DNA from: a virus
Taxonomy: Duplodnaviria > Caudoviricetes
Reading direction: 5' to 3' (one strand)
IMG/VR virus record: IMGVR_UViG_3300033233_001970
DNA: 64,000 nucleotides
The notes beneath the pieces were generated by a model, which saw only the letters and a program-made list of their open reading frames with translations, made no database searches and was not told the DNA's origin. Shown here in pieces: positions 54,428 to 63,020 of this stretch (positions are counted from its first letter, which is position 1; each line of letters begins with the position of its first letter). A program made the translations under genes and the position numbers.

Positions 54428-55033
54428 CAACGAGTGAATTTCGCACAACGAGCGCGGAGTAGGCAGCGAAAGCGACATCCCGAACAGCGAACAGCGAACG
54501 AAGCGATGATGCAGAAGAAGCGAATGCGTCGTCACCAAAATGCGTGACTCCACCGAACGCAAAATACGTTCAACGATCACTGCACAGCGAAAGCGATCGA
54601 ATAGCAGTGCGCGATTCCAGTCCATCGAATGCGAAGTACATCCAGCGAGTCAGCTAGTGAACGAGGTGAAGCGAATGCGCACACAATGGGCGAACTTCCT
54701 GAAGCGAATGCGAACCCTCGTCAGCGATCCCCAGCAGCATTGACGTTTGCACATCGAACGCGAAGTACATCCATCGAGCGATAACGCCCCAGCAAAAAAA
54801 AGCGAGTTGGCCCCAGCTAGTGAACGAGCCGAAGCGAATGCGTGGGCACTAAAAGAGCGACTGGAGAAAGTGACAATCGTGTAACGAAGGCGACCGATGA
54901 TCAACGAGTGATTCAAGAATAGCGTAAGCGATGTAGAGCCAACGTTCGAAACTGATTGAGCGAAGCAACGAGCGAATAGAAACCATCGAACGCGATTCAC
55001 TGACAACGAACGTAAAACCAAAATCGAAAGCGA
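54428..55033 (+). ncRNA. TIGR-like dual-repeat guide array (upstream part, ~15 units, partly degenerate)
   Basis: Alternating 10-nt (CAACGAGTGA-type) and 12-nt (CAGCGAAAGCGA-type) repeats separated by 8-nt variable segments; directly 5' of the Nop-domain gene. Confidence 0.82.
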
Positions 55034-55041
55034 AAACCAAA

Positions 55042-56187
55042 ATGACTACCAAGAAGAAGACGACCGGCAAGATCGAAACGATCATGAACAACGTCATCGC
55101 GCCCGTGCCGAGCAAGGTCGCGAAGGAAGTCGGTAAGCGCCGCCCTGTCGAGCCTGTCGAGCTCGACAATCCGAAAGACGAGCTCCACCGACTCGTTCGT
55201 CTGCACAAGCGTTGGACGCGTACGTACCTCGGTTGGCTTCAGTCCGTAACGGACAAAAATCACTACGAACCGAATGGCGAAAAAACCGTCATCAAATGTA
55301 CGGTTCCAGAGACTCATCGTCACGATCTCACCCGCGTCGCGAACGGTCTCAAGGCCGAAGCCAAGGGTCTCGAGACGGCGATGCTCGTGCAGCTCGAGCA
55401 ACTTCCGATTTACGAGCATTTTCTCAGCAAGGTGTGGGGCTTCGGACCTGTCGTCTCTTCGTACATTGCTTCGATGGTGCAGATCGAGCGTTGCGTGAAA
55501 CCGAGCCAACTCTGGCGCTACTGCGGTAACGCATGCGATCCAAGAACGGGCGGGCGCGAGATCCGCAGTGGCGCCCCGAAGTACAAGCCCGACGGTACGC
55601 AAGGTGACGGGACCGGCACCTACAACGACGAATTGAAGATGCGTATCTGGCAGGGCATGATCGCGATGCGCAAGAATGCCGTCAAGTTCTCTGTCTGCGA
55701 TGCACACAAGGAGATGCGTCCTTCAAAAGCGAGCGTCGAAGCGAAAGCCGAGTTTCGCGCACTGACAATGAAGTGTGCCGAGTGCATGAAAACCAGAATT
55801 CCGTACGGCACGGAGACGAAGTACACGAAACGCTGGCTCGACGCGGTCTACTCGCGAAGCACGATGCCGCAGAAGTATCGTATGGATCCGAACGGAAACC
55901 AGATTTTGCGCAACGGCAAGCCCATTCCGGTGAACGCGGAGCAGGCAGGCCGTCGAAAGGCGACCGATCTCGTTCTCGAAGATTTGTACATCGTCTGGCG
56001 CACGCTCGCAGGTTTGCCGGTGTGGCCTGATCTTTACAGCGTTCGACGCGGCTTCTATCACGGAGGCAAGCCGTGCGTGAATGAGGGGCGCGTCCTGACG
56101 CTCGAAGAAGCTCGGGCTCGTCACTCGTGTCGTGTTCCGGCAAAGGAGCTCTCGCCGGATACCCCTCGACGGAGTAACGCGCGGTAG
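55042..56187 (+). CDS. Nop-domain/IS110-C-terminal-like RNA-binding protein without nuclease domain (TasA-like)
   Basis: Coiled coil, then LPIYEHFLSKVWGFGPVVSSYIASMVQIERCVKPSQLWRYCG, YNDELK, RRKATDLVLEDLYIVWRTLAGLPV; no N-terminal DEDD RuvC or HNH. Confidence 0.82.
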   Translation: MTTKKKTTGKIETIMNNVIAPVPSKVAKEVGKRRPVEPVELDNPKDELHRLVRLHKRWTRTYLGWLQSVTDKNHYEPNGEKTVIKCTVPETHRHDLTRVANGLKAEAKGLETAMLVQLEQLPIYEHFLSKVWGFGPVVSSYIASMVQIERCVKPSQLWRYCGNACDPRTGGREIRSGAPKYKPDGTQGDGTGTYNDELKMRIWQGMIAMRKNAVKFSVCDAHKEMRPSKASVEAKAEFRALTMKCAECMKTRIPYGTETKYTKRWLDAVYSRSTMPQKYRMDPNGNQILRNGKPIPVNAEQAGRRKATDLVLEDLYIVWRTLAGLPVWPDLYSVRRGFYHGGKPCVNEGRVLTLEEARARHSCRVPAKELSPDTPRRSNAR

Positions 56188-56208
56188 AGGTAAACGTGGA
56201 ACAGGAAG

Positions 56209-56399
56209 CAACGAGTGATCCAGAAACAGCGAAAGCGTACGACCGCCAGCGATCGAACCCACCAAGCGAAAGTGAATCACCCTTAATGAGCAGCAAATGT
56301 CACGCATAACGAGTGAACTTTCCGCAACGAAGTGAAAGTATGGCAACGAATGGAACCGTGATGCAGCACCAGCGCAAGCGATACGTCTACAACGAACGA
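56209..56399 (+). ncRNA. TIGR-like dual-repeat guide array (downstream part, ~5 units)
   Basis: CAACGAGTGA-TCCAGAAA-CAGCGAAAGCGT-ACGACCGC-CAGCGATCGA... same motifs and spacing as 54428-55033. Confidence 0.75.
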
Positions 56400-56690
56400 G
56401 CAAGAGCAATGAACATCGAGCATCCGAATATCATTCGATACGACGGCACGGATATTCTTGAGCTTCGCTGGGCGCTCGAGCGTGCATATGAGCGTTCCGG
56501 TGGTGTTGAGGGTGAGAAAAAGTTCAAGGGAGCATGACATGGGCGCTGATCTGTATTTCTTGTCCAAACAGCTTCAAGAGAAGCGGTCTCCGATCCTCGA
56601 AAACATCGCGTACGAGGTTCGCAAGCTGCCGCAGGCGAAAAAAGAGCCGCTCAAGACATTGCTTGTCGAGCTCGACAAGTTGGAAATCAA

Positions 56691-60729: not shown

Positions 60730-60748
60730 TTGGGGTTGTGGGAGACAA

Positions 60749-61920
60749 GTTGCAAAGGTTGCTCGACACCTGGGAGATCGAGACGTGCTACCGGTGAAGA
60801 CGATTTGGCGTCCGAAATCGTTGCAAAGGTTGCTCGACACCTGGGAGATCGAGACAGTTGGAGCGCGAGATCCGCGCCGTCGCATTGCGGAGTTGCAAAG
60901 GTTGCTCGACACCTGGGAGATCGAGACTACGTGAACACCGTGTGCTCGGAGCCACTCGGCGAGTTGCAAAGGTTGCTCGACACCTGGGAGATCGAGACAG
61001 CACCCAATTGATCGTCTGCGGCGTCGACGACGCGTTGCAAAGGTTGCTCGACACCTGGGAGATCGAGACAAATCCTCGGCGGCCCGCCTCGTCCTCCGCT
61101 ACCTCGTTGCAAAGGTTGCTCGACACCTGGGAGATCGAGACACGGCGAATGAGAAGACCGCCGCACGCGAGAGCGCGGTTGCAAAGGTTGCTCGACACCT
61201 GGGAGATCGAGACTCGGCGAAGCAACGTCAACGCGCCGCGATGCGCCGCGTTGCAAAGGTTGCTCGACACCTGGGAGATCGAGACGTGCTGACGGACGAC
61301 TTTCATTCGGCCGGACGAATCGTTGCAAAGGTTGCTCGACACCTGGGAGATCGAGACTCTCGCCGTTCGGATCGAGACGGTTGCTCGACACCTGGGAGAT
61401 CGAGACTGGTGCCAGAAGGGTTTACGGCGTCGCAAAGGTTGCTCGACACCTGGGAGATCGAGACATCCCGTTAGCGTGTGAAGCCTAAGGCGTCGCGCTG
61501 TTGCAAAGGTTGCTCGACACCTGGGAGATCGAGACGATGCCGATCAGTCGCGCGAGGACGCGACGTCGGCTGGTTGCAAAGGTTGCTCGACACCTGGGAG
61601 ATCGAGACTCTAGGTTGAGCTCAGCGATCTTCTCTTCGACTTCGGTTGCAAAGGTTGCTCGACACCTGGGAGATCGAGACAAGTACCCAACGAAGTACCA
61701 CCTCGCGCACGCCGGGCTGTTGCAAAGGTTGCTCGACACCTGGGAGATCGAGACAGGTAGGGGCGCAAAGGCCGCTGCCCGACGTCAAGGAGTTGCAAAG
61801 GTTGCTCGACACCTGGGAGATCGAGACCCGGCGCGCGGGTCGCACTACGGCGCCGCGTCGCATGTTGCAAAGGCCGCGTCGCATGTTGCAAAGGTTGCTC
61901 GACACCTTCTAGTTCGAGAC
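60749..61920 (+). CRISPR. CRISPR array, 36-nt repeat GTTGCAAAGGTTGCTCGACACCTGGGAGATCGAGAC, 17 repeats/16 spacers (mostly 35-38 nt)
   Basis: Repeats start at 60749, 60820, 60892, 60963, 61034, 61106, 61178, 61250, 61322, 61379 (5'-truncated), 61429, 61500, 61573, 61645, 61719, 61792, 61885 (variant); 3' stem CTCGA/TCGAG; degeneration at the right end implies + orientation. Confidence 0.98.
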
Positions 61921-61929
61921 GCGCTCGCC

Positions 61930-62396
61930 GGTTGCTCGACACCAGAAGATCGAGACAGCTTGAATCCCTGCGGTTCTTGCAAAGGTTGCTCGGCACCATT
62001 GAAGATCGAGACTTCACGATTCCCGAAAAGGCAGCTCGACGCCTTGAGCTCGAGACTTCTTTGCGGCCATTTCTCAAAGGTAGCTCGATACCTAGAAATT
62101 CGAGACGAGTCCCGTCTCCAGCAAAGGCTGCTCGACGCCTTCGAAGTCGAGATAGGAGAGCTTCGGAGTTGTAGAATCGTGACAGCAAAGGTAGCTCGAC
62201 GCCTTCGAAGTCGAGGACTACTACGACAACGGACCAGCGGCGGCTCGATGCCGTGAAATTCGAGACTAAGCCACTTGTAAAGGTAGCTCGACACCTTGAA
62301 GCTCGAGACTACATGGGCAGAATCGTAACGGCAGCTCGATGCCTAAAGATCGAGAATCGCCCTCGCAACGGCAGCTCGACGCCTAAAGATCGAGAC
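61930..62396 (+). CRISPR. degenerate repeat tail, ~10 variant repeats with short spacers
   Basis: Units of type AAGG(T/C)AGCTCGA(C/T)(A/G)CC-N5/6-TCGAGAC; stem kept, loop variable. Confidence 0.85.
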
Positions 62397-62411
62397 GGAC
62401 ATTAAAGCACC

Positions 62412-63020
62412 ATGAAATTCTCCGACATCAAACTTCTCTCCGTGGGCGACACGATCGGCATGGTCGGCGCCGTCTATCTCGACGAGAAAGAAGAGCAGCT
62501 CATCGTCTTCTTTTTTCCTGGCGAGTACGACGGCGCGCCGAGGCTCGGTCTCACCATCAAGCCCGAAGCCGTCGATATGACGGTCGAGGATTGGACGGCA
62601 TTTCTTCGTCAAACCGACTTGCTCGAGACGGAGATTCTCGCCAAGGAATCGAAAGAGAGTGCGACGTTCTACAAAGCGATCGTGCGCAAGAGTCAACGAA
62701 GTATCGATCAGATCGTGTCGTGGCGCGTCTACAAAAGAGATCAATACCGTTGTAGATATTGCGGCAACGACAACATCCCGCTCACGGTCGACCATCTGGT
62801 TCTTTGGGAAAAGGGCGGCCCAAGCACGGAGGCGAACCTTCTGAGTTGCTGCAAAAAATGCAACAAGGTTCGCGGCAACATGCCGTACGCGGAATGGCTC
62901 ACGCACGCGCACTATGCTCGTGTTTCGGCCAAGCTCGACGACACAACGAAGCGCGCGAACGAAGCGCTCGTCGCTACGCTCGACAAGATCCCGCTCAATG
63001 TGCACATCAAGTCGAGGTAA
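62412..63020 (+). CDS. HNH endonuclease with N-terminal extension
   Basis: VYKRDQYRCRYCG...LTVDHLVLWEKGGPSTEANLLSCCKKCNKVRG. Confidence 0.9.
   Translation: MKFSDIKLLSVGDTIGMVGAVYLDEKEEQLIVFFFPGEYDGAPRLGLTIKPEAVDMTVEDWTAFLRQTDLLETEILAKESKESATFYKAIVRKSQRSIDQIVSWRVYKRDQYRCRYCGNDNIPLTVDHLVLWEKGGPSTEANLLSCCKKCNKVRGNMPYAEWLTHAHYARVSAKLDDTTKRANEALVATLDKIPLNVHIKSR

Follow-up and report, generated by a model that had tools for sequence, protein, structure and literature searches.

Two families of RNA-guided proteins that bind DNA without cutting it provide the closest described systems for the locus reported here. TasA, the nuclease-free protein of systems based on tandem interspaced guide RNAs (TIGR), binds DNA without cutting (bioRxiv 10.64898/2026.09.09.750476, 10.64898/2026.08.11.744272) and represses transcription (bioRxiv 10.64898/2026.09.09.750476). 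In tasParB-tasA operons, a small partner gene precedes tasA, and arrays lie upstream, between and downstream of the two genes (Faure et al., PMC12045711). The Cas12m family of clustered regularly interspaced short palindromic repeats (CRISPR) effectors, D-E-D orthologues included, also binds DNA without cutting (PMC11013384, PMC10442227); in fact D-E-D, H-D-D and N-D-D orthologues all bind and none of them cuts (PMC11013384). MvCas12m has been presented as the first phage Cas12m (bioRxiv 10.64898/2026.09.14.751636). We analysed one strand of 64,000 nt from a virus-like element (IMG/VR record IMGVR_UViG_3300033233_001970), the whole of which we call the window. The segment on which the initial annotation had focused, 54428-63020, contains one locus of each kind, TIGR-TasA and Cas12m. 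Each module is a sound member of its published family, both kinds having been published before (2022, 2025). Our preferred reading, with a probability of roughly 0.65, is that they are two separate, nuclease-free, RNA-guided DNA-binding modules, independent of each other, in the accessory arm of a temperate virus-like element.

Anatomy of the TIGR-TasA and Cas12m modules

Both loci are genuine: the first is recognised by a TasH/TasR fold and its repeat motifs, the second by Cas12m profiles and an array. As the initial annotation had proposed, they are unrelated to each other and lie on the + strand in the same orientation, about 2.4 kb apart (last TIGR repeat at 56399, cas12m start at 58825). 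Two other assemblies of the same element were available for comparison, L007, which is 100% identical over 15.7 kb, and L008, a third copy that is identical on the TIGR-Tas side and stops at 56983, before cas12m. The features of the two modules are the following.

53827-53899, + strand: short TIGR-type block upstream of the partner gene, with three edge-like repeats (53827, 53868 and 53888), 20 nt separating the second from the third
53894-54418, + strand: gene of a conserved Tas partner of 174 aa, modelled as all-helical (pLDDT 89), with homologues upstream of tas in relatives
54428-55033, + strand: TIGR array between the partner gene and tasA, with edge and loop repeats and 8-nt spacers, partly degenerate and with an internal duplication
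55042-56187, + strand: tasA, encoding a Nop-domain Tas protein of 381 aa without nuclease domain (AlphaFold model, Foldseek, homologue alignment)
56209-56399, + strand: TIGR array downstream of tasA, with about five repeat pairs
58825-60729, + strand: cas12m, encoding a type V-M / V-U1 effector of 634 aa (633 from the ATG at 58828), with PDB and PADLOC profile matches
60749-61827, + strand: CRISPR array with 15 full 36-nt repeats, one truncated repeat, 13 full spacers and two short ones
61885-62396, + strand: diverged tail of 11 diverged repeats with spacers of 0-29 nt, ending 15 nt before an HNH start codon

A Pfam scan of the 381-aa protein gave no match. Its AlphaFold model (pLDDT 80.8) shows long helices at residues 44-68 and 90-118, followed by a C-terminal domain. 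The best Foldseek matches of this model are TasH (9w04, 9vzx, 21kl) and TasR (9mty), with E 2.5e-7 to 1e-5 and probability 1.00; TasH 9w04_B comes first (E 2.5e-7, TMt 0.60-0.74), TasR 9mty has E 9e-6, and the IS621 recombinase ranks next. A weak phmmer match points to the same family (9mty_A, the solved TIGR-TasR, E 2e-4). According to the model, the protein combines the two marks of a Tas protein, a Nop-type RNA-binding fold and coiled-coil dimerisation helices. Just 43 residues precede these helices, no HNH or RuvC motif is seen in the alignment and no Pfam nuclease domain was detected, so the protein is a TasA. Its homologues could be aligned over 26 sequences of 35-55% identity, and an exhaustive profile search extends the TasA family to 1972 representatives at E<=1e-3. 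Within a C-terminal loop that is conserved and modelled with low confidence, H340 is invariant and an aromatic residue is mostly conserved; the two may correspond to the Tyr/His dyad with which dual-repeat Tas proteins process the guide precursor. The Nop domain also carries a zinc-knuckle-like CxxH...CxxC insertion at residues 216-247 (55687-55782); of the 25 relatives aligned, only 2 have it. In IMG/VR, scans with TasA or Cas12m as single proteins returned no relatives, and a search with the Tas alignment returned one short contig.

The grammar of the TIGR arrays was learnt from the relative L005, whose array is clean. The unit has 38 nt and consists of an edge-type repeat of 12 nt (consensus CAnCGAAAGCGA) and then a loop-type repeat of 10 nt (CAACGAGyGA), each followed by a spacer of 8 nt; the GA-rich boxes of the repeats recall box C/D. 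On the + strand, the two motifs have 18 matches in the 3.6 kb between 53.0 and 56.6 kb, against 7 in the other 60 kb. This 43-fold enrichment around tas is strand-specific, with zero matches of either motif on the - strand of 52-64 kb. The arrays of the window repeatedly show spacings of 18, 20 and 38 nt, and five relatives (L001, L005, L010, L014 and L016) present the same motifs and spacings beside tas. The first perfect 10-nt repeat lies at 54428, exactly where the initial annotation had set its start. A 57-nt piece of the array (54623-54679) is duplicated together with its spacers, at 93% identity, at 54752-54778 and 54814-54842, this second copy being split by a 35-nt insert. The duplication is consistent with guide copying inside arrays.

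About 20 of 33 other Tas loci contain a homologue of the 174-aa partner (E 1e-10 to 1e-24), encoded on the tas strand immediately upstream of that gene. The TasA subfamily of the window hence co-travels with a small conserved partner gene. No match to this partner was obtained in Pfam, PHROG or PDB sequences, nor with Foldseek at E<=1e-3. When its model was compared with VIA-align, it aligned over 100-136 residues with the DNA-binding domains of Spo0J (Z 6.6), ParB (6.6), KorB (5.5) and SopB (5.2), scores that are sub-conclusive for a helical protein. The modelled partner may therefore weakly resemble a ParB DNA-binding domain. The array blocks at 53827, 54428 and 56209 reproduce the tasParB-tasA operon layout.

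The second effector matches PDB 23vw_A "Cas12m" (E 1.9e-92, residues 23-576), Cas12m2 8hhl (E 1.3e-25) and the PADLOC profile Cas12u1 (E 4.6e-104, profile positions 2-532 of 533). The RuvC residues D331, E484 and D569/D571 (D-E-D) and the four cysteines of a CxxC...CxxC zinc ribbon are present, and they are conserved over 31 clade members. None of the genes called up to 10 kb on either side (on the identical L007) belongs to the Cas1, Cas2 or Cas4 Pfam families. That both effectors belong to families that bind without cutting, another proposal of the initial annotation, agrees with the published experiments on TasA and on Cas12m, D-E-D orthologues included.

The CRISPR array starts 19 nt past the cas12m stop. 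Its repeats are identical in 14 of 15 cases, the other one having a single substitution, and its full spacers measure 35-38 nt. The repeat can pair AGGT with ACCT and CTCGA with TCGAG, at positions matching the stem and the pseudoknot of the Cas12m2 CRISPR RNA (crRNA) handle (PMC10442227), so the array is expected to be read on the + strand together with cas12m. There is one irregularity at 61358-61406, where a 14-nt spacer remnant is joined to a 5'-truncated repeat (61372-61406), and another at ~61849-61890, where a 21-nt tandem duplication covers a spacer end and a repeat start.

Pairing is kept in the diverged repeats. Over 12 repeat variants, 91.7% of the cells are paired, against 24-41% with the partners slid. 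The CTCGA/TCGAG stem pairs in 12 of 12 rows (11 invariant, one with a G-U pair), all 11 tail repeats keeping it; in the other stem, one pair shows covariation (UA 6, CG 5, UG 1). From 20 other Cas12m loci, 19 distinct repeat sequences were recovered, all of them without the CTCGA/TCGAG stem. Since the tail keeps the element's own stem and these 19 repeats lack it, the tail is probably built from the element's own repeat type and not from mimics of another (host or rival) system, as in RNA anti-CRISPRs or solitary repeat decoys. Its repeats look maintained, not merely decayed. Elsewhere in the window there is no solitary Cas12m-type repeat.

The array also exists in a shorter form. L007 is identical to the window up to the first repeat and then resumes at the window's spacer 61536, ten Cas12m-proximal spacer intervals being absent (window 60785-61535; L007 15744). 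The distal spacers and the tail are retained in L007, with one substitution. A 102-nt contig from a second sediment study holds one of the window-only spacers between two repeats, with no differences, so the long form is real. The short form is most simply explained by one repeat-to-repeat deletion, because the window-only part already has a truncated repeat and one with a mutation; the alternative is polarised acquisition. A CRISPR array without adaptation genes nonetheless differs by ten spacer intervals between near-identical genomes.

Relatives of the two modules and targets of their guides

The initial annotation had read the two systems as an RNA-guided island, that is, as a selected unit. 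We compared 33 other Tas loci (6 from protein look-ups, 1 viral and 26 metagenomic) with 80 Cas12m loci (71 from IMG/VR, L036-L106, and 9 from species genomes). Cas12m is present within 10 kb in none of the 33 other Tas loci (0/33), and the 174-aa partner is the only other gene of the window found in them, the integrase homologue being also absent. In the opposite direction, a profile search detected neither Tas nor the 174-aa partner in any of the Cas12m loci (0/80). A broad profile built from 154 Tas sequences recovered all 35 Tas loci (the 33 plus L007 and L008) and, again, none of the 80. Four complete phage genomes with the nearest viral Cas12m carry no Tas anywhere. Both modules occur together solely in the window and in L007. 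These three comparisons do not support the island as a selected unit: as far as they reach, there is no co-occurrence elsewhere, an outcome that the initial annotation had itself listed as refuting. As relatives of either system never carry the other one in the loci compared, the pairing appears to be incidental, a one-off juxtaposition and not a new combined machine.

An array was detected in 33 of the 80 Cas12m loci, nearly always just downstream of cas12m, and the Cas12m module is thus a self-contained unit. The Cas12m homologues of the 71 viral contigs have 24-46% identity, and about 30 of these loci have the array just downstream; four of the contigs, 43-162 kb long, are rated as complete genomes. 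Among the viral Cas12m, the nearest one (46% identity; L090 / G001 106555-112459) is located 3.3 kb from an integrase 39% identical to that of the window. G001 (124.6 kb) has four genes in common with the window, too few for defining the borders of an island, and it was discarded for that use.

A comparison of the targets of both guide sets, suggested by the initial annotation, yielded no protospacer and no TIGR target above chance. CRISPR spacers found no protospacer in INPHARED phages, and their longest match in the 64-kb window has 13 nt. The best matches in 1.7 Mb of related loci have 15-19 nt, and in five Cas12m-encoding genomes there are chance-level matches only. In IMG/VR, scans for exact matches found neither 24 nt of spacer 1 or 4 nor 30 nt of the repeat. 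In PLSDB, one 35-nt match (89% identity, E 0.3) was rejected. Three sets of 401 genomes each, built around a genome of the Polyangiaceae, of the Gemmatimonadales and of the Pirellulales, respectively, contributed 1-2 partial spacer matches per set (E ~1e-5), which we attribute to chance because the rate is equal in three unrelated phyla. One of them is the match of spacer 61536-61572 in G166, where 28 of the first 30 bases match at an unassigned open reading frame (ORF) beside Hsp70-like and SPFH genes, with no TTN-type flank. The G+C content (GC) of the CRISPR spacers is 63.6%, against 57.9% for the element (resampling P ~0.01), which weakly suggests an origin in other DNA.

The TIGR guides (n=14) were tested in both possible strand layouts. 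In the window they have 0 matches at <=1 mismatch and 1 at two mismatches, the same as shuffled guides, and in 1.73 Mb of loci 0 perfect matches and 1 with one mismatch (1.08 expected). No self-targeting and no cross-targeting between the modules was found in the 64 kb searched.

Setting on the + strand arm

Both modules belong to a single + strand arm that occupies 50.5-64 kb of the window. AT skew turns positive in the arm, whose GC (0.55-0.59) is similar to that of the remaining window; neither module thus has the look of a recent import. The gene order was obtained from gene calls on L007, an identical copy of the region, and from the ORF list of the window. It starts with three unassigned genes, the 174-aa gene, a non-coding stretch, the 381-aa gene and a second non-coding stretch, and continues with six small genes, an M41-type protease domain, the 634-aa gene, 1.65 kb of repeats and an HNH endonuclease. 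The features beside and between the modules are these.

49165-50130, - strand: tyrosine integrase (phrog_1 integrase, E 3.4e-30; Pfam Phage_integrase on the identical gene of L007)
56361-58579, + strand: small ORFs and M41 protease domain, part of neither system (gene calls on the identical L007)
57676-58389, + strand: membrane-anchored M41 (FtsH-type) protease domain of 237 aa (Pfam Peptidase_M41 E 6.5e-9, HEAGH motif, N-terminal hydrophobic helix)
62412-63020, + strand: free-standing HNH endonuclease (Pfam HNH E 1.6e-8; many PHROG HNH families), 15 nt past the last repeat

The integrase diverges from the arm, and the two systems lie 3.8-8.7 kb from it, the 174-aa partner gene being the nearest (3.8 kb). 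The initial annotation had placed an integrase/helix-turn-helix switch upstream of both systems. The integrase part holds (PHROG E 3e-30). The helix-turn-helix part found no support, the ORFs of 85 and 94 aa at 50.1-50.5 kb having no match in the libraries searched (Pfam and PHROGs for the 85-aa ORF, PHROGs only for the 94-aa one).

The M41 protein has no AAA+ ATPase domain and is located between the two RNA-guided modules. Neither this protease nor the other intervening genes have homologues in any Tas or Cas12m locus. A 483-aa gene beside tas in L001-L004, considered as a homologue of the frame at 56929-58389, proved unrelated, and the frame itself corresponds to several small genes. In this segment, a perfect 34-nt direct repeat (56954-56987 / 57155-57188) gives the same 11 residues to two small ORFs (102 and 91 aa) that have nothing else in common, and public contigs break at it. 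The HNH endonuclease was rejected as a conserved Cas12m partner, its homologue appearing in 1 of the 80 Cas12m loci, 5 kb from cas12m. Scans for sigma-70 promoters and terminators gave no excess over shuffles, Rfam and tRNA scans of the window gave no match, and PADLOC found no defence protein besides Cas12m in 50.5-63.6 kb.

As for the element, it is known as a contig of ~246 kb, and the public runs that contain its sequence are sediment metagenomes. PHROG matches in the window comprise the integrase, an exonuclease, Ku, an ATP-dependent ligase, HNH and families of unknown function; no virion genes were seen in the 64 kb. Tas relatives are found in contigs with terminase and capsid genes, and Cas12m relatives in complete viral genomes, so by analogy the element is likely a virus. 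On the - strand, a Ku-like end-binding protein (30170-31231, PHROG E 2e-48) and an ATP-dependent DNA ligase (39029-39850, E 1e-49) suggest that the element brings its own end-joining pair.

Competing explanations and comparison with known systems

By analogy with both families, the TIGR arrays, which border the genes on three sides, would yield transcripts that are cut to guides of ~38 nt, each of them with two 8-nt spacers that would pair with opposite DNA strands. A TasA dimer on its target could then block transcription or replication. Cas12m, for its part, would process its own array, hold the crRNA via the pseudoknotted repeat handle and bind uncut those targets that lie beside a protospacer adjacent motif (PAM), acting as a roadblock. 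We think that both modules most likely act on foreign DNA, of rival elements or of the host, and not on the element itself, because no self- or cross-target was found in the 64 kb and the spacers are richer in GC. The modules would have been acquired separately, with no mutual dependence, and they would be found together because accessory genes accumulate in the arm. Their independence is argued by the lack of co-occurrence and by intervening genes that are common to neither set of loci.

Several points weigh against this interpretation. The flanks compared in the relatives cover 10 kb and many of the contigs are short, and the self-target search spanned 64 of ~246 kb. Both modules come from one lineage only (the window and two other assemblies), so their adjacency may still be selected. 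The RuvC triad is intact, hence cutting by this Cas12m may be possible judging from its sequence. In addition, the TIGR array may partly be decaying: strictly regular units number 7 among ~25 repeat matches, the rest being degenerate or oddly spaced.

A rival reading sees in the two modules a selected functional pair, in which PAM-free, hard-wired TIGR guides and renewable CRISPR guides divide the silencing of host genes or rivals, and which might be co-expressed from the integrase-proximal arm. Such a pair would account for the common strand, the distance of 2.4 kb with no terminator-like site between beyond shuffled expectation, the binder type of both families and an arrangement that is 100% conserved in the second assembly. 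However, it finds no counterpart in the 33 Tas loci, the 80 Cas12m loci or the four complete genomes, unrelated small genes and a protease separate the modules, and no common or cross targets were found, so we regard it as unlikely. A more elaborate form is about as unlikely: a selected two-tier, nuclease-free island in which TIGR-TasA would provide short, PAM-free, inherited guides and the adaptation machinery of the host would supply the Cas12m array with new spacers in trans, the ten extra intervals being fresh acquisitions. Alternatively, one or both modules could control the life cycle of the element itself (lysogeny, excision, replication), for example if TasA, with a DNA-bending dimer and a ParB-like partner, aided the integrase or partition. 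Ideas of integrase aid and ParB for TasA appear in the Discussion of Faure et al. (PMC12045711), the integrase is 3.8 kb from the partner gene, and the partner weakly matches ParB-family DNA-binding domains. We nevertheless find this quite improbable, as no TIGR guide matches the window at <=1 mismatch and the count at two mismatches equals the shuffled control, the integrase homologue is in no other Tas locus, and the CRISPR spacers have no match in the 64-kb window (~180 kb of the element lie outside this search).

The irregularity of the arrays raises the question of whether the loci are relics with little current activity, the TIGR array degenerating and the CRISPR array a frozen remnant without adaptation genes. 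The few strict TIGR units, the truncated repeat and the duplication in the CRISPR array, the 11 diverged repeats with spacers too short to guide, and the absence of cas1, cas2 and cas4 among the genes called within 10 kb would all be expected from decay. Against it, the ORFs of both effectors and of the partner are intact and identical in independent assemblies, Cas12m shows conservation at its catalytic site and zinc ribbon, the full CRISPR repeats are identical in 14 of 15 cases and the diverged tail retains both handle stems. Moreover, the array is still changing, as its length differs from one near-identical genome to another. We consequently give decay a small probability. Two independent silencing modules in one accessory arm are the most likely explanation, a dedicated island being at odds with the co-occurrence data.

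The TIGR module shares with published TIGR-TasA systems the Nop-domain Tas fold without nuclease, the short repeats, alternately of edge and loop type, with paired spacers that are also short, the arrays upstream, between and downstream of the partner and tasA, and the carriage by a mobile element. It differs in its unit, of 38 nt (12+8+10+8) instead of the uniform 36 nt published, and in its partner, which has only 174 aa, is at best similar to a ParB DNA-binding domain and lacks an N-terminal CTPase domain. The CxxH...CxxC insertion of TasA and the irregularity of much of the array are further differences.

The Cas12m module resembles MmCas12m2 (PMC10442227), GoCas12m and MsCas12m (PMC11013384) in its effector of ~600 aa with a TNB zinc ribbon, in its 36-nt repeats directly downstream, in the stem and pseudoknot of the handle, in the lack of adjoining adaptation genes and in belonging to a family of DNA binders that do not cut. 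Unlike them, it is encoded by a virus-like element and has a long tail of diverged repeats; its effector is 25-45% identical to theirs, with the canonical D-E-D of published clades 3 and 4 and not H-D-D. MvCas12m of myxophage MV-1 (bioRxiv 10.64898/2026.09.14.751636) is also virus-encoded and D-E-D, with a small adjacent array, no cas1, cas2 or cas4 and no protospacers found. Its claim to be the first in a phage has to be set against the homologues in 71 IMG/VR contigs, among them four genomes that are complete, with or without terminal repeats. Among viral contigs, Cas12m loci that bring an array of their own are common. For MV-1, unlike the window, a TIGR-Tas locus is not reported.

Nuclease-free interference between mobile elements reportedly exists also in the type IV-A3 CRISPR systems of plasmids, whose arrays are said to lack adaptation genes of their own and to vary among close relatives. 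The window is similar to them in its mobile-element, nuclease-free interference and in its array that lacks adaptation genes and yet varies among close relatives, and differs in the effector family.

In summary, neither family's picture is altered by these findings. As far as could be found, this is the first element with TIGR-Tas beside CRISPR-Cas, both of the binder type, and it could provide a natural setting for asking whether two kinds of guide are redundant, complementary or differently aimed.

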